Shown: positions 37,135-52,022 of the stretch, piece by piece
How the letters are laid out: every line of letters starts with the position of its first letter
Numbering within the stretch: the first letter of the stretch is position 1
Source of the DNA: a bacterium
Lineage (GTDB): Bacteria > Patescibacteriota > Minisyncoccia > Phycocordibacterales > Phycocordibacteraceae
Direction of reading: 5' to 3'
Length of the DNA: 64,000 nt
NCBI GenBank assembly: GCA_037200965.1
Contig: JBBCGK010000001.1
Span: 832,001 to 896,000 of the forward strand
Program-made: the position numbers and the translations under genes
The notes under the pieces: model-generated
The model's database searches: none
Seen by the model: only the letters and a program-made list of their open reading frames with translations
Told to the model about the DNA's origin: nothing

Positions 37135-37638
37135 ATGACTTCCTCCAAAGCGGCCCGGGCCCTTTTCCTTCGAAACGTGATATTCGGCGTCGAAGACAGC
37201 CTGGTCTCGACCGTGGGGCTCCTCTCCGGCATTACGCTTGGCGCGACGCCGCGTTCCATCGTCCTTCTCACGGGCCTCGTCTATGTGTTCGTCGAAGGGT
37301 TCTCGATGGCGGTGGGGAGTTTCCTGTCGGAAGAAGGCGCGCAGGAGTATGCGGGTAATAAGAAGTCGGCGCTCGGAAGCTCCATCTTCGGCGCGTTCGT
37401 GATGCTCGTCTCGTTTGTGATTGCCGGGTTCATTCCGCTTATCCCGTACATCCTCCTTGCCGACCAGAGCGCCATCTGGGTATCGGTCGCCGCTTCGATC
37501 CTCGCGCTCTTTCTTCTTGGAGTTGCGGGAGGGAAGCTCGCGGGTACGGGGATGATAAGCCGGGGGCTTCGCATGGCGCTTCTTGGAGGCTTCGCGATCG
37601 CTATCGGCGTTCTCGTATCTCATTTCTTCAGGGTATAA
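37135..37638 (+). CDS. VIT1/CCC1 family iron/manganese transporter
   Basis: FGVEDSLVSTVGLLSGI ... FSMAVGSFLS are conserved VIT family motifs. Confidence 0.7.
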   Translation: MTSSKAARALFLRNVIFGVEDSLVSTVGLLSGITLGATPRSIVLLTGLVYVFVEGFSMAVGSFLSEEGAQEYAGNKKSALGSSIFGAFVMLVSFVIAGFIPLIPYILLADQSAIWVSVAASILALFLLGVAGGKLAGTGMISRGLRMALLGGFAIAIGVLVSHFFRV

Positions 37639-37874
37639 GGCCCCGGCCTCATTAATGGTGCTTGCGTTGAAATTAATTTTCGTTCGCAGTATAGTAAGTG
37701 CATATGGCAGTTAATGAAAAAAGACAAAGGGTCAATTTCACCGCTACAAAGATTATTTCAAAGCCTGCGGTAATTCGTTTCCAAACAAAAAATGGGCAAT
37801 TGGTGACCTTCAAGGGACATAAGGACATACCCGCGCCCGTTCGTGTGAGTTTTATGAGAAAGGGAAGATAGGAT

Positions 37875-38333
37875 ATGCGCCTACGGGCATTGAAACCCGA
37901 GATTGTTCATATCGAAGGAAATGCCTTGGTTCCGGCCAAGGCCGTTTCTTATGTGCTCGATGCGAACGGGAAGATCGTCGAAACGGTTAAACCGAGAACC
38001 CATGCATTTGAGAACGAACTAAAGGCGAAAATGAGAAGTGAACTCAAAGGAATCTCTCTATTCCCTACGAAGAATAAAGTATTTGTATCGATTATATGCG
38101 GACTTAATTCCAGCCATGAATATGAGAATCTTGACTTGGACAACAGAGTGAAAACCATTCTGGATGCATTGAAAGAGGTAGTATATGAGGATGATAAGCA
38201 GGTTAAGGTCTTACTGGCCGACAAGATATTTTTAAAGCACAAGCCGGAGAGCTACTTTCAGTTCAGTATCAAAGTGTTGGACGAGAAGACCGAGCGATTG
38301 TTATACAGGCATCTGTCGAAGATAGGCAGGTAA
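37875..38333 (+). CDS. RusA-like Holliday junction resolvase family protein
   Basis: NLDLDNRVKTILDALKEVVYEDDKQV matches the RusA catalytic core DLDN..K...DAL......DD.QV. The gene and its flanks are AT-rich relative to the surroundings. Confidence 0.6.
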   Translation: MRLRALKPEIVHIEGNALVPAKAVSYVLDANGKIVETVKPRTHAFENELKAKMRSELKGISLFPTKNKVFVSIICGLNSSHEYENLDLDNRVKTILDALKEVVYEDDKQVKVLLADKIFLKHKPESYFQFSIKVLDEKTERLLYRHLSKIGR

Positions 38334-38639
38334 GACACAATATTCCGATTCGAGATACTTCTTGAGAAAAAGAACCTGAGTCGGAGACGACCATGCTCCA
38401 ATGTCGTCTTCCCAACTGCCACCTTCGCTTTCGCTGTTATGCAGGGTCAGCGAACGGATGCGTGCTAACTCGGGCCGTTTCTACCTGCGTGGGCAGTCCG
38501 CGCGTTCCGATGTCTTTCGCCAAGCATAGGAGTCTGCCATGGCGACTGGTTTCGCTTCCCACAGACGACCGCCCGGCGACATTTCCACCTGCTCTTAATT
38601 CCAAGGAGATTCGAAATGTCGCTATTTGTTTATAAGACG

Positions 38640-40375: not shown

Positions 40376-40966
40376 CTATACCGTTTCTTCCGGAACCGCC
40401 TTAAGTTTCTTGAATCTCGCGTGGCCTATGAAGAAGGCGATTCCCGCGACGAGAAGCACGATAGGCCAGCGGAAAACTCCGAGCCAGCCGAAGGTGAAGA
40501 AGCCGAAGAGGTAGGCGATCGTGAACAGCACCACCGACCACAGCACGTCCGAAATGAAGACGATCGGCGCGAACCGCTTCCACGGCACCCCGAAGAATCC
40601 GCAGGCGAGGAATATCGGAAGCCGGAAACCCGGAAGGAAGCGGGCCGTAAGCACGGTCGTCAGGAGTTCGTCGTGGATCCAGTTCTTGAAAGGGGCAGCG
40701 CGCTCGTGCTCGACGAAGCTCTGGAGCCAGGGATGGGTCCTGGCATAGCTTCCGATGCCGTAGAAGAGGAAGTCCGTGACCGCGACACCAAAGATTACGG
40801 CGGGCACCGCGACGAGCGGGGAGATATAGCGGTCCGCGGCCATCACCCCCGCAAAGACGACCGATACGTCCTCGAGGAGCATGCTGCCGAGGGCGATAAA
40901 GAGGGGCAGGTACCCGCTGTGCGCCCCCGCCTCGAGCATGTGGTGGATAAGGAACGAGAGATGCAT
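40376..40966 (-). CDS. DedA/VTT family membrane protein
   Basis: Multi-TM with the conserved FLPGFR motif of the DedA family. Confidence 0.7.
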   Translation of the reverse strand: MHLSFLIHHMLEAGAHSGYLPLFIALGSMLLEDVSVVFAGVMAADRYISPLVAVPAVIFGVAVTDFLFYGIGSYARTHPWLQSFVEHERAAPFKNWIHDELLTTVLTARFLPGFRLPIFLACGFFGVPWKRFAPIVFISDVLWSVVLFTIAYLFGFFTFGWLGVFRWPIVLLVAGIAFFIGHARFKKLKAVPEETV

Positions 40967-41090
40967 TGTTTTTATATTACCTTGATATCACTGGTATATC
41001 ATTCTAACGTTCTTTACAAACACCTCATTCATACCTGTTTGAAATTTTCTAGTTTTAGTAGATTCTCTTTCCGTTGAACAGAACTAGTCC

Positions 41091-41117
41091 CTTATAAGCG
41101 TTTGCATTCCTTATAAG
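41091..41117. promoter_or_regulatory. Two copies of the palindrome CTTATAAG spaced 19 bp apart, overlapping a TTGCAT-17-TACACT promoter-like element upstream of the island operon
   Basis: cCTTATAAGcgtttgcattcCTTATAAGgagatagtacact, read directly. The ATG of the 77-aa ORF lies ~20 nt downstream. Confidence 0.3.
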
Positions 41118-41136
41118 GAGATAGTACACTTTAAAT

Positions 41137-41370
41137 ATGAACAAGGAAAAGATTAAAGGAGAGTCATCTAGGGATAGATTTAAGCGTTTAGCAACGCTTC
41201 GTACCAACGGAGTACTCAGTCGGCTTAAAATACTTGGAAATTGTTCCAATCGTCATGTCTATGAATACGACGAGGAAGATATAGATAAAATCTTTTTTGA
41301 AATTGAACGCAAACTTAAGGAAGTAAAGGCTAAGTTTCATTTTCCAAAGCAGCGTGATTTTAAATTATAG
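41137..41370 (+). CDS. Small basic hypothetical protein (77 aa) coupled to the downstream large gene
   Basis: AT-rich ORF. Its stop is 5 nt before the 41376 start. No recognisable HTH. Confidence 0.45.
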   Translation: MNKEKIKGESSRDRFKRLATLRTNGVLSRLKILGNCSNRHVYEYDEEDIDKIFFEIERKLKEVKAKFHFPKQRDFKL

Positions 41371-41375
41371 AAACT

Positions 41376-43889
41376 ATGTCGCGGCCTCTAAAAAATAGAG
41401 AAGTCTTTTCGAAACTACTCAGCGCAGTTTCTTCAGAAGAGATAGCGTCTTTAATCGAAAACGAAGTCTTTTTTAAACCAGAAAATTGCAGATGGATTCC
41501 TTATGGAAGACGTGAGCTGAATGCCCCACAGATCGAGGGACAAATGAAAAGCTCAAGTAATGCGTTGGTAGAAAAAATCACCAATTCAACAGATGCTCTC
41601 CTAATGAGGCGATGCTATGAAGTCGAAGGGGTGGCACCTAATAGCGAAGACAAACGATTACCCAAGACTCTTTCTGAAGCAATTACAAAATATTTTGGAA
41701 GCGAAGAAGAAATAAATAAAAATCGAAGCGCATGGGCAAGACAGCATCTCATGGTTTTGGCTGAGGGTGATAAAAAGAGGCCAACAATTACTGTTATTGA
41801 TCGAGGCGAAGGACAAACTCCCAATAGAATTCAGGATACAATCGTTGGCTTGAGCGAGAGCATAAAGGAGAAAATAAATTTTGTTTTTGGTAAATACCAT
41901 CAAGGAGGGTCAGCCGCTATACGTTTTGCAGGTAGCAAAGCTAAGTGCTACCAGCTTGTCCTGTCCCGGCGCGCGGAGAGTATTGCCGATAAAGGTAAAG
42001 AAAATCCGTGGGGATTTACGTTGGTAAGGAAAAGTTTTAAAAACAGAGTTCCTTATTACGAATACTGCACAGACAAGGATGAAAACACCTTTTCTTTCCC
42101 GTACGATAAACCAATAAAAATTGATGGTCTGGAACTGGACTTTATCGATGGGTCACTTATCCGTATGTACGATTACTACTTGGATAATCCATCAAATATC
42201 ACTTTCGGGTTTCATTCACTGGCCTTCGATTTTGATCAAAAGTTACAGAAACCGCCACTCCCTATCTTTCTGCAAGATAAGAGAGGATGGAAAGGAGACA
42301 CTAAATATACAATTGCAGGCTTACTAAGGCGAATTGAGGATAATAAAAATATTATCAGCGATGATATTACCCTTCCTGCAGGTTTAGGAGAGATCGGAAC
42401 TCGCAATATCCGCTGCATTCGCTTGAAGCATATAAGCGATGCGGAAGGAGTAAAATCCTATAAAGAATTAAATCAGAAAATATTCTACCTGGAAAACGGT
42501 TTGGCTTTGGGATATGAGACCGAATCTTTTGTGCGAACAGATTGTCAGCTTCCCGCTCTGGCCCCCTATCTCCTCTGTTATATCGATATGTCTGATATTC
42601 CAGTTGAGTTGGTAAATATCTTTCACTCTGGAAGAGAAGAATTGGCTCGAACCGAGGATTATCACATCTTAAAAGATCGCCTAAAAAAGTTCTTTGAGAA
42701 TGAAGTCTTTGAGAAGTGGGATAGAGAATACCAAGAAAAAAGCTTGATCAATTCCAATGAGGATAATAAGGAACTCGATAAGCTCATTGAGAAGGCCATC
42801 GTCGATGATCCGGAACTCAAGGAGTTACTGGGTATTGGTGAAGAAATCAAGATCCCGAAGGGGAAAGAGGAGAATAAGGAGAAGTACATTGGCGAGGAAC
42901 ATCCAAAAATGTTTGAGCTTGTAGGGAGTCAACCAAAAGAGGTTGATAAATCTTCTTACGCCCTTATATCTTTTAAGACCGAGGCAGAAGATAAACTCTT
43001 TACTAGAAAAAAGAGCCGCTATTATATTGATTGGTCCAAAGATTCAACCATCCTTGATGTGGTGGTTCGTAGTATGAATAAAGGTATTGTGTCTTTGCGC
43101 GTGGATTGCAGGGAACATGCCAGCGTTGGCGATCAGGATAAGATTACTTTCACTCTGCTGGATTCTGAAAAAGTAAAAAAGTTTGAACAAATCGTTACAT
43201 TTAACGTAATTGAAACACCGCCTTATGAAGGTTCATATTTCCCAACGTACTTTAAGCCATTGAAGAAAACGCTGAAGATTCCATCGAAAACAAACAAAAA
43301 GTTTAGTTTTGCTACAGACGTTGCAAATGATTATTTCTCCAGAGAGGATGATCCTGGATTGTTTGAATTTGAAGATCGTGATGATCTGCGTTTAAAAAAG
43401 TCCCGTTTAAATGATGGCGTTCTCGAAATTACCTTTTATGCCGCTACTGAAAAGTTGGGGAAACTACCGGATGCTAAAGTAGTAATTAGCGATACTTCAA
43501 ATCATACGTTTGATATCTCTATACCCATCGAGATCGTCTCTCCCGAGGAGAGTTCCAGGCTTAACGAACCAAAGAGAAATCCTGTATATGAAAGAGACTG
43601 GCCCACTCACGGCTGGGATGAACATAGTATTGCCAGTGTTGATTCGTCCAGGACACAAGGCTTAATAGTAAATTTGAACGTAGATTCTAAGCCCTTGAAG
43701 GATTTAAAGAAAATGGTTGGCCTTGATAAAGTCGGAAGCGCAGAGAATAAATATATTGCCGATATTTACATTTATTCCCTCTATCTTTATTTTGAACTAA
43801 AAAATGATCCTGACAAGGATCGGGTTCTAGGTTCTGCAATGAAGGCTATTGGGAAGGCCCTTCCCGGAATGATAAGAAAAATCATTTAA
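41376..43889 (+). CDS. Large (837 aa) protein with an N-terminal GHKL (MutL/MORC/HATPase_c-like) ATPase domain; C-terminal ~600 aa unassigned
   Basis: Bergerat-fold motifs: N-box LVEKITNSTDAL (E..NS.DA), G1 box ITVIDRGEGQTP (DxGxG), G2-like FGKYHQGGSAAI. The gene is AT-rich and convergent with a DNA MTase. Confidence 0.6.
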   Translation: MSRPLKNREVFSKLLSAVSSEEIASLIENEVFFKPENCRWIPYGRRELNAPQIEGQMKSSSNALVEKITNSTDALLMRRCYEVEGVAPNSEDKRLPKTLSEAITKYFGSEEEINKNRSAWARQHLMVLAEGDKKRPTITVIDRGEGQTPNRIQDTIVGLSESIKEKINFVFGKYHQGGSAAIRFAGSKAKCYQLVLSRRAESIADKGKENPWGFTLVRKSFKNRVPYYEYCTDKDENTFSFPYDKPIKIDGLELDFIDGSLIRMYDYYLDNPSNITFGFHSLAFDFDQKLQKPPLPIFLQDKRGWKGDTKYTIAGLLRRIEDNKNIISDDITLPAGLGEIGTRNIRCIRLKHISDAEGVKSYKELNQKIFYLENGLALGYETESFVRTDCQLPALAPYLLCYIDMSDIPVELVNIFHSGREELARTEDYHILKDRLKKFFENEVFEKWDREYQEKSLINSNEDNKELDKLIEKAIVDDPELKELLGIGEEIKIPKGKEENKEKYIGEEHPKMFELVGSQPKEVDKSSYALISFKTEAEDKLFTRKKSRYYIDWSKDSTILDVVVRSMNKGIVSLRVDCREHASVGDQDKITFTLLDSEKVKKFEQIVTFNVIETPPYEGSYFPTYFKPLKKTLKIPSKTNKKFSFATDVANDYFSREDDPGLFEFEDRDDLRLKKSRLNDGVLEITFYAATEKLGKLPDAKVVISDTSNHTFDISIPIEIVSPEESSRLNEPKRNPVYERDWPTHGWDEHSIASVDSSRTQGLIVNLNVDSKPLKDLKKMVGLDKVGSAENKYIADIYIYSLYLYFELKNDPDKDRVLGSAMKAIGKALPGMIRKII

Positions 43890-45202
43890 TTCTTCTCCAT
43901 TACGACTATATATTCAAATTCATACGCACGAGTTTTTGAAGGATTGTCCATTCCAGTAAACTTTCCGCTTTCAGTATCACGCCACGGAGTTATCATTTTA
44001 TTTGGTATTTCCCGCTTAATAAAGTCTACGTTCGTAAAACCAGCGGCCTGCATCTGTTCTGCCGCCACCTGTGCGTTCTGAATTTCTACACCCCGAAGAC
44101 TTGTGTTTCCAATAATTACGCAAGCCTTCCCGCCCTTCTTAAGAATTCGATGAGCCTCGGCGAAGACTTTTTTCATATCTAGGAAGTAATTAGCAACGTC
44201 GATAGCAAGCGGGCGTTCAACTAGCATGAGATCGTCGACAATTTTCGCCCCTATGATGCTATTAAAATTGCCGGCCTTTTTGGTCTTTGAACTCGTACCA
44301 ATAAAAGTTCTGCGAAAATCTATGAAACTATTACTGAAGTGATGCCATTTCTTGAAGTGTTTAGCATCGTCCCCGAACCACAGCAACGTAAGCTGATGAA
44401 GATCAGCATACTCATAGGAAGTCACATAAGGCGGAGAAGTCACTATCAAGTCGATAGATTCGGATTTAATTGGGAATGTTTTGGTCGAATCTCGACGATA
44501 CATTTTTGTCGGGATGCTGATGCGTTTTGCTTCAGCTAGGTTGTTGTAAAATAAATCATTCTTTCTAATCATTGAATCCAGATGTCGAAGAAAGGACTGT
44601 TTAGGGACCGGTATGATCTTGTCTTTGTCAACTGTCGGCTTGATACTTTTCATTAACCATCGAGAGCAGTTTTTCAGGTTATGTGAGAAAGCGCACAAGA
44701 AAAATCTACGAACGTGCGGACTCTTAATTTTCTTTATTGCAAAGTAAATTCTATCGAGCTCAATAACGGTTTCCGCATCGAACCAATAAGTAATTCGAGC
44801 ATGATGTGGGCGAGAGACGCTCGGAGCTGCATCATAGTATTCCAAGAATCTCTCTTTATGATTTGCAAGTGTACGCGGCTTAATCGCGGTGGTCTTTGTT
44901 TGAGTGATTAACTTCGCAACTGGATTTATATCAAAGCCGATACTCGGATGTCCTAGTAACTTTGCTTCCACCAAAGTCGTGCCACACCCACCGAATGGAT
45001 CACAAACGACTTGTGTAGTATGCGGCGCGTAATCTTCAATCAATTTACGAACAATTTGCGGAATAAACTTTGCCGGGTAACGATGATAGTCGTGGGAAAA
45101 GGCAGTAGTTTGTGAGCGACCAATATCTCGAAAAGACCACTCTTCACGCGGTTGCAGGCTTAAAAAAGTATTTCGGATGTTTTCGATATCAACAGTGGCC
45201 AT
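43886..45202 (-). CDS. N6-adenine/N4-cytosine DNA methyltransferase
   Basis: Motif X/I YPAKFIPQIVRKLIEDYAPHTTQVVCDPFGGCGTT and motif IV LIVTSPPY. AT-rich. Start taken at MATVDIEN; the longer ORF runs to 45277. Confidence 0.8.
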   Translation of the reverse strand: MATVDIENIRNTFLSLQPREEWSFRDIGRSQTTAFSHDYHRYPAKFIPQIVRKLIEDYAPHTTQVVCDPFGGCGTTLVEAKLLGHPSIGFDINPVAKLITQTKTTAIKPRTLANHKERFLEYYDAAPSVSRPHHARITYWFDAETVIELDRIYFAIKKIKSPHVRRFFLCAFSHNLKNCSRWLMKSIKPTVDKDKIIPVPKQSFLRHLDSMIRKNDLFYNNLAEAKRISIPTKMYRRDSTKTFPIKSESIDLIVTSPPYVTSYEYADLHQLTLLWFGDDAKHFKKWHHFSNSFIDFRRTFIGTSSKTKKAGNFNSIIGAKIVDDLMLVERPLAIDVANYFLDMKKVFAEAHRILKKGGKACVIIGNTSLRGVEIQNAQVAAEQMQAAGFTNVDFIKREIPNKMITPWRDTESGKFTGMDNPSKTRAYEFEYIVVMEKN

Positions 45203-45352
45203 ACTAAGAGGTAGTATAAGGGCAGGCCGGAGACGATTCAAGCACATGTCGTGTGTTCTTTGGCCCGGAGGAGCCACAGCAGATTCCGAAGTACATACAA
45301 GCGGTATCTTCGGTTTATTCGATAATTATCACCACGCGCGTATAATGGCTGC

Positions 45353-46354
45353 ATGGCTAAACGGAAAAAGGACTCAGAGATACATATGCCCGTCGATGTC
45401 GTCGTGTACCAGGCCAAAAGCGGAGCTATCGAGCTGCGCGGCGATTTCAGCAGGGAAACGGTCTGGGCGACGCAGGCACAGATTGCAGAGGTTTTCGGCG
45501 TTGAGCGATCCGTCGTGACCAAGCACATCCGGAATATTCTCAAGGACAAGGAACTTGAGGAACGTTCAGTACGTGCAAAACTTGCACATACTGCCGGGGA
45601 CGGCAAGACGTACCAAGTCGAGCATTATAACCTCGATGCCATCATTTCCGTTGGATATCGCGTGAACTCAAAGACAGCCACGGCGTTCCGCCAGTGGGCG
45701 ACGAAGACCCTGCGCTCGCATATCGTCGAGGGCTATACGATCAACCGCGCCCGCGTCGCGAAGAACTACGACGCGTTCATACGCGCGGTCGGTGAGATCA
45801 AGGCGCTTTTGCCCTCCCGTGCCGCGATCGGGGACGCAGGCGTCCTTGAGCTTGTCGCATTTTTCGCAGACACCTGGCTGTCGCTCGATGCGTACGATCG
45901 CGAGCGCTTCGTCCCGGTCCGCACGACCCGCAAGAAGGTCGCGCTTACCGCCGACATCCTCATGCGGAGCGTCTCGGTCCTTAAGTCGGAACTCATCGCG
46001 CGCGGCGAAGCGTCGGAACTCTTCGCCGCCGAGCGGGAGGTGAAGGCCCTTGAAGGGATCGTCGGCAACGTCTTGCAGTCGTTTGGCGGAAAAGAGCTCT
46101 ATCCGAGCGTCGAGGAGAAGGCGGCGCACCTTCTTTATTTCATCGTGAAAAACCATCCGTTCGCAGGCGGCAATAAACGCACGGGCGCATACGCGTTCGT
46201 CTGGTTCCTTGACCGTGCGAAGGTACTGGACCGGGAACGCATTACCCCGAGCGCACTCACCGCGCTCACGCTGCTCGTCGCGGAGAGCGATCCGAAGGAG
46301 AAAGAACGCATTACCGGCCTCGTGACGATGCTTCTCGGGCTCTCAAAGAAATGA
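45353..46354 (+). CDS. RhuM-family N-terminal domain fused to a Fic/Doc domain
   Basis: The N-terminal IELRGDFSRETVWATQAQIAEVFGVERSVVTKHIRNI...YNLDAIISVGYRVNSKTATAFRQWAT matches RhuM. The C-terminal HPFAGGNKRTGAYAF matches the Doc-type HxFx(D/N)(A/G)NKR motif. Confidence 0.75.
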   Translation: MAKRKKDSEIHMPVDVVVYQAKSGAIELRGDFSRETVWATQAQIAEVFGVERSVVTKHIRNILKDKELEERSVRAKLAHTAGDGKTYQVEHYNLDAIISVGYRVNSKTATAFRQWATKTLRSHIVEGYTINRARVAKNYDAFIRAVGEIKALLPSRAAIGDAGVLELVAFFADTWLSLDAYDRERFVPVRTTRKKVALTADILMRSVSVLKSELIARGEASELFAAEREVKALEGIVGNVLQSFGGKELYPSVEEKAAHLLYFIVKNHPFAGGNKRTGAYAFVWFLDRAKVLDRERITPSALTALTLLVAESDPKEKERITGLVTMLLGLSKK

Positions 46355-46361
46355 CGGGTAT

Positions 46362-48041
46362 ATGACGCAAGGCGAAGCGCTCAATATCCTCAAGACAGGC
46401 GCGAACGTCTTTCTCACGGGCGAGCCTGGGAGCGGCAAGACCCACACCGTAAACGAATATGTCGCATGGCTCCGTTCCCATGACATCGAGCCCGCGATCA
46501 CGGCTTCGACCGGGATAGCCGCCACCCATATCCAGGGAATGACGATCCACTCATGGAGCGGCATCGGGATAGCGGAATCGCTGTCGGAAGCCGATCTCGA
46601 CCGGATCGCAAGCAAGGAGCACGTCGCGCGGAGAATCGCGAAGACGCATGTTCTCATTATCGACGAGGTGTCGATGCTATCGGGCGAAGTGCTCCGGATG
46701 GCGGACCGGGTATGCCGGGAAGTGCGCAGAAGGCCGGAGCCGTTCGGCGGGCTGCAGGTGGTTCTCGTGGGCGATTTCTTCCAGCTGCCGCCCGTGACCC
46801 GGGGGGGAAAGGAAGTAAGCTTCGCCTTCGATTCGCCTTCGTGGCGGGAGCTCAACCCGATCATCTGCTATCTCACCGAACAGCACCGGCAGGACGACGC
46901 GAAGTTCACCGCCGTGCTCTCGGCGATACGCGCGGGAGACTGGGACCAGTCGCATGTTTCGGCGATCACATCCCGCGAGACCGACGGCGACGAGCTCGGG
47001 GACGAGACGCCCCGGCTCTTCACGCACAATGCGGACGTGGACCGTATCAACGGCGACAAGCTCGCGGGCATTAAAGGAAACGCGAAGACGTACGAAATGG
47101 AGTCGAGCGGATCCCCGGTCCTCATCGAGGCGCTTAAGCGCGGCTGCCTTTCGCCCGAAACTCTTACGCTTAAAGAAGGCGCGATCGTGATGTGCACTAA
47201 GAATAACCAGGCCGCGGGATACGTGAACGGGACCCTGGGAACCGTGATCGGCTTCTCGACAGGCTGGGGCGCCTCCGCGAGCCCCATAATCGAGACGAAA
47301 GACGGCCGCGAACTCACCATAGAGCCCGCGGACTGGGCGGTCGAAGAAAACGGCAAGGTACGGGCGAAAGTAACTCAGGTGCCGCTCCGCCTTGCCTGGG
47401 CGATCACGGTCCACAAAAGCCAGGGGATGAGTATGGACAGTGCGGCTATGGACCTCTCGAGGGCATTTGAATACGGGCAAGGATATGTGGCGCTCTCGCG
47501 TGTACGGTCGCTCGACGGACTCCACCTCCTTGGCTGGAGCGAGGAAGCGCTCAGGGTACATCCGGCCGTGGCCGCGAGGGATGCGGAATTCCGCGAGGCT
47601 TCGCTTGAAGCGGGCGCGGCATTTTCAGCGCTCGAAGAAGACGGGAGCCGTGAGACTATGGAGCGCAATTTCATCAAGGCCTCGGGCGGCACGCTTGAGG
47701 CGCGGGAAGCGGGGAAGCCCAAACCACCAAAGAGAAGCACGTACGAAGAAACCCTCGCGCTTATCGAAGCGGGGAAGACGATCGAGGGAGTGGCAGCCGC
47801 CCGCGCGCTCACGTTCGGCACCATCACGGACCACGTGGAGAAGCTCGTGAAGGGCGGGAAGCTCGATACGGAAGACGTGCGGCGCATTATCCCGGTCAGA
47901 CTCCACGATGCGCTCCCGGATATTTTCGAGGTATTCCGGGCCGTGGGCGCAGAGAAGCTCGCGCCCGCATTCGCGCGGCTTGGGAGCGAGCACGGCTACG
48001 ACGACCTGCGTCTCGCGCGGCTTCTCTATGAACGAAAGTAG
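46362..48041 (+). CDS. PIF1/RecD-like SF1B DNA helicase with a C-terminal HTH-like domain
   Basis: Walker A GEPGSGKTH, Walker B IIDEVSML, FGGLQVVLVGDFFQLPPV (PIF1 signature), and a C-terminal KTIEGVAAARALTFGTITDHVEKLVKGG. Confidence 0.8.
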   Translation: MTQGEALNILKTGANVFLTGEPGSGKTHTVNEYVAWLRSHDIEPAITASTGIAATHIQGMTIHSWSGIGIAESLSEADLDRIASKEHVARRIAKTHVLIIDEVSMLSGEVLRMADRVCREVRRRPEPFGGLQVVLVGDFFQLPPVTRGGKEVSFAFDSPSWRELNPIICYLTEQHRQDDAKFTAVLSAIRAGDWDQSHVSAITSRETDGDELGDETPRLFTHNADVDRINGDKLAGIKGNAKTYEMESSGSPVLIEALKRGCLSPETLTLKEGAIVMCTKNNQAAGYVNGTLGTVIGFSTGWGASASPIIETKDGRELTIEPADWAVEENGKVRAKVTQVPLRLAWAITVHKSQGMSMDSAAMDLSRAFEYGQGYVALSRVRSLDGLHLLGWSEEALRVHPAVAARDAEFREASLEAGAAFSALEEDGSRETMERNFIKASGGTLEAREAGKPKPPKRSTYEETLALIEAGKTIEGVAAARALTFGTITDHVEKLVKGGKLDTEDVRRIIPVRLHDALPDIFEVFRAVGAEKLAPAFARLGSEHGYDDLRLARLLYERK

Positions 48042-49147: not shown

Positions 49148-50152
49148 TTGAATTCTAGCTTGAAACGCAACAACCCGTATTGAAAAGCGCATACCCGCAG
49201 GTACGCTAGGAGTGTTGAATCACCTAAGCACCAACGGGTATGCATACACACAATACGCGCGACATGCGCGTTTCGCTAGGCGCGCTCCTGCGCGCTGGTG
49301 TGAAGAAAGCTGGGATCGCGCGGCAACTGGGCGTCCACCGCTCGACCATCTCAAGGGAGTTGAAACGGAACGCGAAGAAGAACGGGCGGTATCACGCCAC
49401 GCACGCGGACGTGCGTGCGAAGGCACGCCGCATGAAGAGCAAGGAGGCGGGACGCCTCCTTGCAAACAATCAGCAGTTGGCTGACCTTGTCGAGGCACTC
49501 CTTGACCCACTCGTCTCTCCAGAGGTGATCGCACACCTTCTCGACATATCGCACGAGACGATATACGCGTGGCTATATCGCACCCGTCCTGATCTGTTGG
49601 CTCGTCTGCCGCAGCGAGGAAGGAAGCGCCGCCGATATGGCTCAAAGCGTACGCAGAAACAAGGATGGACCAAGAACGTGCGTTCCATTGAGGAGCGCAC
49701 AGAACCTGGCTGGGAGGGCGATACCGTCAAAGGCGCAGGTCGTGAACGCATCCTCACCCACGTGCACCAGAGCTTGTATCTCGTTGCCGACCTAATCCCG
49801 AACGGCACGGCAGATGTCGTGCATGCGGTACTGAAGTCGCATCAGAAAGTCACCGGGACCATCACGTACGACCGCGGGAGCGAGTTCGCACTCTGGCAGT
49901 TCATTGAACGTGATACCGATGCCACCGTGTACTTCGCACACGCACACCATCCGTGGGAGCGCGGGAAGAACGAGAATACCAATGGCCGCCTGCGGCGACC
50001 ATTCCCCAAACGGCTGAACCTGGGTACCATATCCAAAGACGACCTTGCGGACGTGGTGGACCTCATGAACCACACGCCGCGGAAGTCTCTCTCCTGGCAG
50101 ACCTCGTGCGTGCGCTTTGGGAAGGCGTGTTGCGTTTCAGATTAGAATTCAA
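49148..50152 (+). mobile_element. IS30-family insertion sequence, apparently intact, with 25-26 bp imperfect terminal inverted repeats and possible GGG target duplication
   Basis: IRL 49148- TTGAATTCTAGCTTGAAACGCAACA. IRR, read as the reverse complement of 50128-50152, is TTGAATTCTAATCTGAAACGCAACA (22/25 identical). GGG runs flank both ends. Confidence 0.75.
49240..50145 (+). CDS. IS30 family transposase
   Basis: HTH ([20 protein letters not shown]). DDE core: [42 protein letters not shown]. Confidence 0.85.
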
Positions 50153-50222: not shown

Positions 50223-52022
50223 ATGGAAATCCGAAACATCGCCATCATCGCGCACGTGGACCACGGCAAGACCACGCTCACTGACGCCCTCATGCGCCAG
50301 ACGGGGGCCGTGTCCGACGCGACGGTGTCGATGGACAACAACGCGCTCGAGCGCGAGCGAGGGATCACCATCTACGCGAAGAACACTTCGATCGAATACA
50401 AGGGAACGAAGATCAATATCGTCGACACCCCGGGACACGCGGACTTCGGCTCGGAAGTGGAGCGCGTGCTCCGCTCGATCGACTCGGTGCTTCTCGTCGT
50501 CGACGCCCAGGAAGGGCCGATGCCCCAGACGCGCTTCGTGCTCAAGAAATCGCTTGAACTCGGCCTCAAGCCGATCGTCGTGCTTAATAAGATCGACAAA
50601 CCGGCGGCTGATGCGGCGCGGGCCGAAGAGCAGGTTTTGGAACTCTTTCTTGAGCTCGGAGCCTCAGATGAACAGGCCAATTTCCCGGTCGTATACGCGA
50701 TCGGCCGCGAAGGCGTCGCGATGCGCAAACTTACCGACGAGAAGAAGGACCTCAGCCCGCTTCTCGACGTCGTCCTTGAGCACGTGCCTGCGACCTCTTC
50801 AACGGAGCTTTCCACGAAACCTTTGATACTCCAGCCGTTCAACCTCGGCTATGACAACTTCCTCGGCCGCATGGCCGTGGGCCGCATATACGAAGGAACG
50901 GTGCATCCGGGCGATGCCGTATTTGTCAAGAAGCCCGACGGCGCGACCAGGAGCGGCAAGCTCACCAAGGTTTTCACCTTCGTCGGTACCGAAAAGAAGG
51001 ACGTTCCCGAGGCGGTTGCGGGCGACATCGTCATGATCGCCGGACTGCCGGATATTTTCATCGGAGAAACCGTTACGACGAACGCGGATCAGGCTCCGCG
51101 TGCGGCAATCTCCATCGACGAGCCCACCATCACCCTTAACTTCCTCGTCAATAACTCGCCGTTCGCCGGGAAGGAAGGGAAGTACGTGACGAGCCGCCAG
51201 CTTCGCGAATACCTCGAGCGCGAGCTTGAGGTGAACGTCGGGCTCAAGGTCGACTTCATCTCCCCCGACAATTTCAAGGTCTCGGGCCGCGGCGAGCTCC
51301 ATATCGCCATCCTCCTTGAGAACATGCGCCGCGCCGGGTATGAAATGCAGGTCTCGCAGCCGCAGGTCATCATCCGCGAAGAGAACGGCGTGAAGCTCGA
51401 GCCGTTTGAGGAAGTGATCATCGATACCCCGAGCGAATATCAGGGAGCGATCATCGAGCGCCTCGGTACCCGCGCCTTCGTCCTCCAGAACCTCGTGCAG
51501 CACGACCAGAGCGTGCGCCTCACGCTCCTTGGCCCGACGCGCGGGCTTCTCGGATACCGGAACCAGTTCGTGATCGATACGCGCGGGGAAGGCATTCTCT
51601 CTTCGAGAGTCGTCGGATTCCAGCCGTACGCGGGCGAGATCAAGAAGCGGCAGGTGGGTTCGATGATCTCCATGGCCGGGGGAAAGACGCTCGGTTACTC
51701 GCTCGCGACGCTCCAGGAGCGCGGTGTGCTGTATGTCACTCCGGCAACGGAAGTGTATGAGGGCCAGGTGATCGGCAACACCTCGAAGGGCGAGGAGATG
51801 ATGGTGAACCCGACCAAGGGCAAGAACCAGTCGAACGTCCGCTCTTCGGGCACCGATGAGGCGATCAGCCTCGTGCCGCCATTCCTTATTACGATCGAGC
51901 GCGGACTCGAGATCATGGCCGAGGACGAATATCTCGAGATCACTCCCGAGAGCGTGCGCCTCCGGAAGCAATTTCTTACCGAGAACGACAGGGCCAAGGC
52001 GAAGCGGACGGATATCAAATAG
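50223..52022 (+). CDS. typA: Translational GTPase TypA/BipA
   Basis: G1 [26 protein letters not shown]-like C-terminal domains. Internal ATG at 50223 chosen because the upstream extension overlaps the IS30 element. Confidence 0.9.

Follow-up and report, generated by a model that had tools for sequence, protein, structure and literature searches.

The window analyzed here is a 64,000-nucleotide stretch of contig JBBCGK010000001.1 (positions 832,001 to 896,000, forward strand) from a bacterium of the family Phycocordibacteraceae. Within it lies an AT-rich island encoding a large ATPase and a DNA methyltransferase (MTase), and the question is whether this island is a generic mobile fragment or, as the first-pass annotation had proposed from the letters alone, an uncharacterized restriction-modification (R-M)-like defense system. 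The island contains exactly three genes, here called S, G, and M (GC3 is the GC content at third codon positions):

41137-41370, plus strand: S, a 77-aa open reading frame (ORF)
41376-43889, plus strand: G, an 837-aa ORF that follows S after a 5-nt gap
43886-45202, minus strand: M, 438 aa; the maximal ORF reaches 45277, and the true start is the ATG at 45202
41132-45183, both strands: laterally transferred cassette (S, G, M, and control regions), delimited by blastn and by the trough in GC and GC3

Our data identify S-G-M as a conserved, laterally mobile three-gene unit. G carries intact ATPase motifs and is a GHKL ATPase by its modeled fold, and relatives of G pair alternatively with phosphorothioate modification modules. 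We consider it probable that the unit is a modification-linked conflict or defense module, in which M (and S) would form the specificity side and G would be a generic ATP-driven effector.

S, G, and M form a conserved and mobile cassette

An initial homolog search returned 108 G homologs, all unannotated. In five divergent ones on long contigs, a convergent N6_N4 methylase lay immediately downstream of G in every case, and a 54- to 77-aa ORF lay immediately upstream in four; a DndB-domain protein occupied that place in the fifth (25% identity). A one-genome-per-species scan of 185,579 species-representative genomes yielded 361 loci with a G relative, of which 80 were retained and, along with the earlier ones, scanned with hidden Markov models. 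We refer to loci with a G identity of at least ~34% as the close subfamily and to those with 25 to 32% identity (59 loci retained) as distant relatives. The order S-G-M was found in every close-subfamily locus not cut by a contig end (30 loci, ~25 distinct), and no complete locus of this subfamily had G without M. Conversely, when three close M homologs were picked without reference to G, S and G adjoined all three. G homologs are thus recurrent neighbors of MTases, a test that the first-pass annotation had set for its own proposal. Other conserved features are the convergence of G and M with overlapping stop codons and the presence, upstream of G, of a small gene with its pair of palindromic boxes. 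The hosts of the close loci are candidate phyla radiation (CPR)/Patescibacteria, Clostridiales, Nitrospina, Omnitrophota, and metagenome-assembled genomes (MAGs) of Delta- and Gammaproteobacteria.

In the window, the island spans ~40,970 to ~45,300, where windowed GC falls from ~0.59 outside to 0.35 to 0.45 inside; its mean GC is 0.402, versus 0.562 across the whole 64 kb. The GC3 values of S, G, and M are 0.32, 0.39, and 0.42, compared with 0.82 upstream (DsbA-like and DedA genes) and 0.73 to 0.76 downstream (RhuM-Doc and PIF1 genes). When 90 related loci were compared to the window by blastn, all similarity fell inside 41,132 to 45,183, the flanks never matched, and the limits coincided with the GC/GC3 trough. 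For 30 related loci, the similarity breaks off at these two positions. Since DNA similarity ends at the cassette borders and GC3 contrasts with that of the neighbors, we conclude that the cassette is laterally mobile. These results agree with the earlier description of an AT-rich island between DedA and ~45210 holding three ORFs, with a 5-nt S-G gap and a convergent overlap of the 3' ends of G and M. The stop codons of the latter two share TTAA at 43886 to 43889, and the same M start (45202, 438 aa) is called in L094, which is this locus in an independent assembly. One detail needed correction: DedA is on the minus strand, so that position 40966, given as its end, is its start.

Cassette flanks were unrelated each time and consisted mostly of housekeeping genes. 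No G homolog was found in 50,697 phage genomes, and only two G relatives were present in 2.9 million viral contigs, versus the 361 loci in species genomes; a generic prophage fragment, which the first-pass annotation had named as one outcome that would sink its proposal, is therefore not what these data describe. At the island borders, a search for integration signatures found only short, chance-level repeats, the sole tRNA being 15 kb away, and no Rfam family reached its gathering score within the island. Other defense candidates occur in the context of the cassette, namely RhuM-Doc (PDC-S23) in the window and Fic, SLFN plus GIY-YIG, and AbiE at other loci.

Three individual loci deserve mention. 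In L099 (3611-9323), a rearranged cassette, M>S>G on one strand, lies between two large serine recombinase genes, a setting that suggests one way in which the cassette moves. In one MAG (L031:5989-9889), S is intact, but G has fallen into seven or more ORF fragments and the methylase into two; the cassette appears to decay as a whole. A 78%-identical cassette (L097:9276-11295) adjoins a Schlafen/AlbA_2 plus HATPase_c_4 protein and a GIY-YIG protein, a defense-island-like setting.

G is a GHKL ATPase by fold and contains no recognizable nuclease

To characterize G, we aligned 98 homologs, down to 24% identity, for the profile and the structural model, and examined 60 further distant representatives separately. 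The Bergerat motifs reported at the N terminus are present: motif I (E66-K-I-T-N70-S-T-D73-A), motif II (D142-R-G-E-G146-Q), and the G2 box (G172-KYHQ-G177-G178). E66/K67/N70/D73, D142/G144/E145/G146/Q147, and G172/G177 are invariant across the 98 homologs. Among the additional 60 representatives, motif I shows invariant Glu and Asp positions and an Asn position with a conservation of at least 90%; D142, G144, G146, G172, and G177 are invariant there as well.

The AlphaFold2 model of G built on the 98 sequences had a mean predicted local distance difference test score (pLDDT) of 85.9 and a predicted template modeling score (pTM) of 0.76. Foldseek against the PDB matched it to GRP94/Hsp90, GyrB, ParE, and MORC2/3 at an E value of ~1e-9 over 400 to 490 aligned columns. 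Structural comparison values were 15.7 for TRAP1, 15.3 for MORC3 (3.5 Å, 286 residues), 14.9 for GRP94, 13.6 for SMCHD1, 12.9 for MutL, 12.7 for MORC2, 11.9 for Topo II, and 11.7 for Topo VI-B. Given the aligned lengths, the match covers the ATP-binding domain (residues ~1 to 270) and the transducer-type domain (~271 to 425). G thus has the Bergerat fold itself, as the first-pass annotation had anticipated from its motifs, and also the second alpha/beta domain supplying a conserved basic residue that marks the GHKL+S5/transducer subgroup. In the model, G is divided as follows:

41376-42185, plus strand: G residues 1 to 270, N-terminal strap and GHKL (Bergerat) ATP-binding domain
42186-42650, plus strand: residues 271 to 425, second domain, of the transducer/S5 type; its S-G-R-E-E motif contains the invariant R420
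42651-42911, plus strand: residues 426 to 512, helical linker (427 to 485) and low-confidence loop (488 to 500), from model secondary structure and pLDDT
42912-43547, plus strand: residues 513 to 724, two immunoglobulin (Ig)-like beta-sandwich domains
43548-43889, plus strand: residues 725 to 837 and stop, small alpha/beta plus long-helix C-terminal domain, from model secondary structure

The second sandwich, Ig2 (~616 to 724), is an insertion confined to the ~840-aa forms. The C-terminal domain has conserved P732, W742, N768, Y798, and K827, and the C-terminal end of the profile is kept across the wider family; by analogy with the C-terminal domains of MutL and Hsp90, this domain is a candidate constitutive dimerization or partner-binding end.

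At the level of sequence, G matched nothing in Pfam, NCBIfam, PADLOC, or PHROGs, nor any PDB sequence, whether by phmmer or with the 98-sequence profile. The window G did not match PF13589 (HATPase_c_3) at an E value of ≤0.01 and stayed below threshold for every Pfam GHKL model. However, 13 of the 60 distant representatives matched PF13589 (best E value, 5.2e-6), the only Pfam domain found in any of the 60. By this sequence comparison the family appears to lie at the edge of the PF13589 model, which gives a sequence bridge to known GHKL families. G is therefore assigned as a GHKL ATPase by its modeled fold, not by a database model. The label "MORC-like" holds for the fold, which matches MORC2/3, but not for the MORC-defining S5 motif, which is absent.

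As previously noted for this island, no recognizable nuclease and no specificity subunit were found. Past residue 451, G has no conserved Asp/Glu/His or Lys catalytic constellation, and its beta strands carry no conserved D...(D/E)xK; the sole ExK (807 to 809) lies in a predicted helix and is lost in distant members. None of the 60 relatives has a Pfam nuclease domain. The suggestion that the C-terminal ~600 aa might hide an effector was not upheld, there being none recognizable among the transducer, helical linker, Ig-like sandwiches, and helical end domain.

M is an amino-methyltransferase

The assignment of M to the N6-adenine/N4-cytosine class was supported by a match to PF01555 (5.9e-19), in which the C-terminal part of the profile aligns to the N terminus of M. 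About 180 aa separate motif I (DPFGGCGTT) from motif IV (TSPPY), which comes second; the SPPY sequence presumably favors N4-cytosine as the substrate. M also matched PADLOC MTase_II (1.4e-49) and PHROG 18146, and its best PDB matches were TTHA0409-type and N4-cytosine MTases. The methylases are orthologous across all cassette loci. As regards the components of a Type II R-M system, the cassette has an MTase with the S-adenosylmethionine motif I and the catalytic motif IV and has no cognate restriction endonuclease. The PADLOC check proposed in the first-pass annotation was split: M (MTase_II) and the neighboring RhuM-Doc (PDC-S23) matched, but S and G matched no model.

S and M covary, while G is exchanged

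To identify which part of the cassette carries specificity, we compared the identities of G, S, and M to the window proteins across loci. Divergent G alleles were found with both closely and less closely related S and M: the identities of G, S, and M were, respectively, 42, 74, and 89% in L018; 36, 76, and 86% in L026; 44, 73, and 79% in L023; 44, 53, and 53% in L002; and 38, 55, and 54% in L008. S identity was correlated with M identity (r = 0.84, p = 2e-6, computed on phylogenetically nonindependent loci), and the two fell into two coupled classes. G identity was uncoupled from both (r = 0.40, or -0.26 among loci with G below 50%). All domains of G have diverged, the GHKL domain the least. 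Two S+M types occur with at least four G types that differ deeply from one another. Because S and M are coupled and G is uncoupled, G does not carry specificity matched to M. A sequence-specific nuclease matched to M would not tolerate such shuffling of G; therefore, a generic engine (G) with a specificity side consisting of M, and S matched to it, fits these data.

Distant relatives of G pair with phosphorothioation genes and nucleases

An exhaustive profile search found 2,600 clusters (at 50% identity) of the wider G family at an E value of ≤0.001, 973 of them at ≤1e-30. Both bacteria and archaea have members of this family, and CPR/Patescibacteria have many. The conserved core of the family comprises profile positions ~1 to 614 and the C-terminal end; distant relatives are ~800 aa long and lack Ig2.

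SspC and/or SspD was encoded within 6 kb of G in 20 of the 59 distant loci, or 22 if SspA alone is included. At such loci, the Ssp proteins matched PADLOC models (SspC, E = 0; SspD, 1.9e-105; SspA, 6e-143), while the G of an Ssp-linked locus matched no PADLOC model. The Ssp genes were often adjacent to G or convergent with it with stop-codon overlap; several G genes directly followed SspD or SspA, and others followed an SspC-SspD-(DUF262+HNH) string. On a Hymenobacter plasmid (PGAP annotation), G is convergent and stop-overlapping with a DUF4007(SspB)-SspC-SspD-DUF262-SIR2 operon flanked by integrases, the same geometry as that of G and M in the window. On Ensifer adhaerens plasmid pC (L091:4327-8702), a G relative lies beside SspC-SspD. 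Thus, the G family pairs alternatively with phosphorothioate modules. In the same Ensifer locus, a 776-aa protein annotated as a sensor histidine kinase (HATPase_c_3 at 118 to 217 and HATPase_c at 667 to 772) and a 680-aa protein without a Pfam domain are encoded between SspC-SspD and G; these two may be additional partners.

For comparison with these counts, sspBCD is present in ~3% of genomes overall (PMC12914056). The restriction branches of phosphorothioation named in a 2025 review are DndFGH/SspFGH, SspE, and PbeABCD, and no others (PMC12707154), and a comparative reappraisal of Dnd systems from the Aravind laboratory does not mention GHKL or MORC. We considered G as SspF, SspG, SspH, SspB, SspE, or a Pbe protein, but neither the literature descriptions nor the PADLOC models fit.

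Other distant loci had different partners. A DndB-like gene was present in 8 of the 59, five of these with a GIY-YIG gene, and the arrangement DndB-G-methylase occurred in four. In five Bacteroidota loci (L038, L039, L042, L044, and L046), S and G form an operon with YhcG (DUF1016), a PD-(D/E)xK protein matching PADLOC candidate PDC-S02 and encoded no more than 3 nt after G; no methylase of the M family is nearby, and S-G-YhcG is a possible nuclease-equipped version of the system. Nuclease or effector partners of G outside the window therefore include DUF262+HNH, GIY-YIG with DndB, YhcG PD-(D/E)xK, and SIR2+DUF262, while the 64-kb window itself encodes no homolog of SspA, SspC, SspD, DndB, DUF262-HNH, or GIY-YIG. 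The remaining distant loci had heterogeneous neighbors, some defense and some housekeeping genes. This heterogeneity rules out a universal partner for those distant relatives that lack Ssp and MTase genes.

S is a small basic protein behind a putative operator

We collected 175 homologs of S, none with a Pfam domain, and S was the gene immediately preceding G in 41 of 91 loci. The small ORFs upstream of G are homologous to S, with 44 to 73% identity. In the AlphaFold model (pLDDT, 81.6), S is a two-helix hairpin consisting of a basic helix (residues 11 to 37, with seven K/R and one D/E) and an amphipathic helix (46 to 67). Searches of Pfam, NCBIfam, PADLOC, and PDB (phmmer) gave nothing usable for S, and the only PHROG match was weak and to a family of unknown function (E value, 0.003). 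As DndB fills the S slot in distant loci, we also asked whether S is a fragment or homolog of DndB; hhalign gave this a probability of 0.2%, and the idea was rejected.

Two candidate control elements were located:

41074-41136, plus strand: putative S-G promoter/operator, with two CTTATAAG palindromes and -35-like and -10-like elements
45213-45241, minus strand: promoter-like site upstream of M (TTGAAT-17-TATACT), from a consensus scan, candidate only

The two CTTATAAG copies upstream of S lie at 41091 to 41098 and 41110 to 41117, 19 bp apart; the window contains four copies versus 0.46 expected. The second box falls in the spacer between the -35-like TTGCAT (41102 to 41107) and the -10-like TACACT (41125 to 41130), and the S start codon is 6 nt past the latter. 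Upstream of S in related loci, we found a TTGAC -35 element, a -10 element, and two CTTnnnAAG-type or TTATATAA-type palindromes ~20 bp apart. The paired palindromes look like an operator, to which S (or G) may bind. The counts from the promoter and terminator consensus scan of the region were not above shuffled expectation.

Comparison with known systems

Prokaryotic MORC and paraMORC1 to paraMORC5 ATPases, which combine GHKL and S5 domains, have been predicted in R-M operons (Iyer, Abhiman, and Aravind 2008; PMC2292703). G resembles them in its GHKL domain with intact ATP motifs, its transducer-type domain with a conserved basic residue, its sporadic, mobile distribution, its methylase and HNH/RE-fold nuclease neighbors, and the PF13589 matches of some of its relatives. 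Nonetheless, the signatures of MORC proper and of paraMORC2 to paraMORC5 are missing. The S5 motif GhXhhpXXRhl of MORC proper was found by regular expression in none of the 98 and none of the 60 members, the best partial match in the window G being 3 of 6. The window G contains neither the ExxxH of paraMORC2 nor the HxH of paraMORC5, and in place of the C-terminal PD-(D/E)xK (DUF4263) of paraMORC3/Shedu type I-D it has Ig-like sandwiches and helices. The TIR domain of paraMORC4 is absent from G, S, M, the window neighbors, and the 25 most frequent families listed among distant-locus neighbors. paraMORC1 was compared by context only; the context fits in part (a methylase here, DUF262+HNH in distant loci), but no MORC gene accompanied G in the loci examined. 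Further differences are that no superfamily II (SF2) helicase partner was seen beside G and that the unique Ig-like C-terminal half, the dedicated 77-aa partner, and the Ssp pairing are undescribed in PMC2292703. Within the predicted GHKL/paraMORC R-M class, G probably represents a separate GHKL family, set apart by its Ig-like domains, its dedicated small partner, the lack of a nuclease, and modification partners that can be exchanged between methylation and phosphorothioation.

The paraMORC3 protein VcSduA (Shedu type I-D), a fusion of GHKL with a DUF4263 PD-(D/E)xK domain, is a validated antiphage protein (PMC12137116). Hence, the statement that GHKL ATPases linked to methylases are uncharacterized still applies to the G family but no longer to paraMORC3. 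VcSduA resembles G in being a GHKL ATPase with a clamp-like middle domain, and the residues equivalent to E66 are required there for phage defense. It differs in being a single gene with its own nuclease and no modification partner, whereas G has no nuclease and is tied to methylase or Ssp genes.

Ssp systems (SspABCD with SspE or SspFGH) likewise join a self-marking module to an exchangeable, separate effector (PMC8092258, PMC12914056, PMC12707154), and distant G genes lie next to or convergent with sspBCD, sometimes with SspE-like DUF262 proteins. However, SspE is a DUF262-DUF1524 protein, SspF has a Walker A motif, SspH is FtsK-like, and SspB is a DUF4007 protein, and G is none of these (PMC8092258, PMC12914056). 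SspC, the neighbor of distant G relatives, is a homolog of BrxC (PMC12914056). The window, in turn, contains no Ssp or Dnd gene, and the mark of its cassette would be base methylation.

In Type III R-M systems, the Mod methyltransferase carries specificity and the ATP-dependent Res acts only in concert with Mod. BREX, to our knowledge, depends on PglX and blocks phage DNA with no nuclease known. The likeness of the cassette to both is one of functional analogy, with a putative G-M interaction; it differs in having a GHKL clamp instead of an SF2 helicase or a P-loop BrxC, in having three genes, and in having no PglZ or BrxL. C-protein-regulated Type II R-M systems such as Esp1396I have a small coupled upstream gene, a convergent M gene, and two palindromic boxes. 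S-G coupling, convergent M, and the two boxes before S recall this layout; however, S is a two-helix hairpin and not an Xre-type helix-turn-helix (HTH) protein, the R position is taken by the nuclease-free G, and S is only a putative ligand of the boxes. Finally, Hsp90/TRAP1/GRP94, MutL, and SMCHD1 are only 10 to 15% identical to G, with no sequence-level match to the 98-sequence profile, and differ from it in C-terminal architecture and genomic context.

Proposed role of the cassette and alternative explanations

From the gene context we infer a defense function for the cassette, and the immune role, the direction of modification dependence, the clamping, and the part played by S are all put conditionally in what follows. 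M would methylate host DNA at its target sites and carry the sequence specificity. G would act as a homodimer of the Hsp90/MORC/MutL structural class whose N-terminal gate closes upon ATP binding, like that of Hsp90, MutL, MORC, and type II topoisomerases, and it would act on unmarked DNA, probably via M and/or S, much as Res depends on Mod in Type III systems and BREX depends on PglX. S, a basic helical hairpin translationally coupled to G and matched to M, may couple G to M or to DNA; alternatively, it may control S-G expression through the paired palindromic boxes before its own gene. The primary act would be ATP-dependent clamping or entrapment of unmodified DNA, blocking replication or expression, which we favor because no nuclease is detectable in G. 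Cleavage, if any, would be supplied by the partner nucleases (HNH, GIY-YIG, or PD-(D/E)xK) or SIR2 that adjoin G in other lineages. A bolder form of this proposal is nuclease-free restriction, in which an Hsp90/MORC-like clamp recruited by M and S entraps or compacts unmarked DNA, silencing rather than cutting it, with base methylation or phosphorothioation as the mark depending on lineage; we regard this form as possible yet doubtful.

Several observations weigh against the reading of S-G-M as a modification-linked defense module. No nuclease family, fold, or motif was found in S, G, or M by Pfam, PADLOC, the fold model, or the motif scan, so that the defining component of restriction is missing from the cassette. 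A classical R-M pair does not combine one M type with shuffled alleles of its partner, and the loci behind the S-M correlation are not phylogenetically independent. S shows no HTH and no significant structural match by Foldseek (best E value, 3.5), and, given the hairpin model as well, we rejected S as a controller protein of the HTH kind; what is left of the regulator idea is the conservation of the paired palindromes. About one-third of the distant relatives have no recognizable modification gene within 6 kb, and some sit among housekeeping genes. To these may be added that neither G nor S is represented among PADLOC models, that most family members come from MAGs of uncultured organisms, and that all functional claims rest on guilt by association.

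Some of these points could also be read in other ways. G, with S, could be an accessory of the modification machinery, such as an ATP-driven loader, scanner, regulator, or repair factor for M or SspBCD, in an epigenetic module without an immune effector. The lack of a nuclease in the cassette and the pairing of G with two chemically unrelated modification systems are in keeping with this, as are the presence in the slot upstream of G of DndB, from a family that regulates phosphorothioation (PMC4507180), and the work of GHKL+S5 proteins such as MutL in repair (PMC2292703). We nevertheless find an accessory role unlikely: characterized SspBCD and Type II MTases need no such factor (PMC8092258, PMC12914056), many distant G genes lie beside stand-alone nucleases, and a fast-diverging, allele-shuffled G next to conserved M and S fits conflict proteins better than housekeeping accessories. 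A conventional Type II system, with G a cryptic sequence-specific endonuclease fused to a GHKL regulator, S its C-protein, and M the cognate methylase, would explain the C-R/M layout of a small gene coupled to a large one, a convergent M, and paired palindromes, as in Esp1396I; endonucleases of this type are often undetectable by sequence, and paraMORC3/VcSduA proves that GHKL-nuclease fusions exist (PMC12137116). The confident, nuclease-free model of G, the missing catalytic constellation past residue 451, and the result for the 60 relatives make such a system rather unlikely, as does S being a helical hairpin; moreover, G alleles only 36 to 44% identical pair with MTases 79 to 89% identical, which is hard to fit with shared specificity.

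The compactness, high mobility, and foreign composition of a cassette inserted among housekeeping genes, together with a small upstream protein typical of antitoxins, would also suit a selfish addiction module in which S-G is toxic, M or S neutralizes it, and the unit persists because its loss kills the host. G never occurs without M in complete close loci, and both are fragmented in L031, as this explanation would have it. Addiction is, however, compatible with defense, R-M systems doing both; as no toxin fold was found and S is far more conserved than usual antitoxins, a purely selfish module seems improbable. Even less credence is due to G and S as a GHKL kinase/substrate pair, CapK/CapS-like or anti-sigma/anti-anti-sigma-like, that controls neighboring genes: a small protein is indeed co-encoded with a GHKL protein, and CapK/CapS is often found beside R-M systems, but the architecture differs from the HTH-STAS-GHKL kinase and STAS-winged-HTH repressor of that pair (PMC13373217), making this very improbable. 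Lastly, an AT-rich island with a RusA gene 3 kb upstream and an IS30-like ORF 4 kb downstream, whose M matches a PHROG methylase family, might be taken for a prophage or other mobile-element fragment containing a solitary phage methylase and two unrelated passengers. The conservation of the trio as a unit between unrelated, mostly housekeeping flanks and its near-absence from viral sequences effectively refute this, and we give it almost no weight.

Neighboring genes in the window

The RhuM-Doc and PIF1-like genes do follow the island, as described earlier, but both are host-like in composition and lie outside the transferred unit. The RhuM-Fic/Doc fusion (45353-46354, plus strand) matches the PADLOC candidate defense family PDC-S23 (3e-106). 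Elsewhere, Fic/Doc proteins are encoded beside the cassette of L098 and in the vicinity of G at three distant loci. The gene for the PIF1-like SF1B helicase with a C-terminal HTH_40 domain (46362-48041, plus strand) starts 8 nt after the RhuM-Doc gene, so these genes may belong to one operon. Apart from the island, the window has another, smaller AT-rich patch (37600-38400; GC, 0.41 to 0.45), which contains a lone RusA Holliday-junction resolvase ORF (37875-38333, plus strand; PF05866, 1.6e-10) with a GC3 of 0.54 versus 0.82 for the host; this patch is probably a remnant of a prophage or other mobile element. Directly upstream of the BipA/TypA gene lies an IS30-like transposase ORF (49240-50145, plus strand) with N-terminal HTH_38/HTH_23 domains and a DRGSEF-type motif; it overlaps with the long ORF that opens with GTG at 49953, and the true start of BipA lies near 50253.

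Implications

The R-M-like defense reading of the first-pass annotation holds up as a candidate, the fold, the MTase linkage, and the prophage question having all turned out in its favor. Beyond that annotation, this analysis adds the Ssp link, the size of the family, the finding of no hidden nuclease, and the decoupling of G from S and M. The decoupling is a natural experiment on which component carries specificity. If the cassette is immune, an unannotated, widespread family would join the defense repertoire and would fill the vacant partner position beside many orphan-looking methylases and in Ssp clusters without SspE or SspFGH. With its minimal set of three genes, the cassette would moreover put to the test the proposal of 2008 that GHKL+S5 ATPases are the engines of R-M-like systems. 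A nuclease-free cassette could show modification-dependent immunity without cleavage, which is still open for BREX, and could give a tractable bacterial model of MORC/SMCHD1-type clamps that read epigenetic state. Should nuclease-free restriction itself prove true, bacteria would have an equivalent of MORC-type epigenetic silencing, and methylation-based and Ssp-type immunity would both gain a new class of effector.

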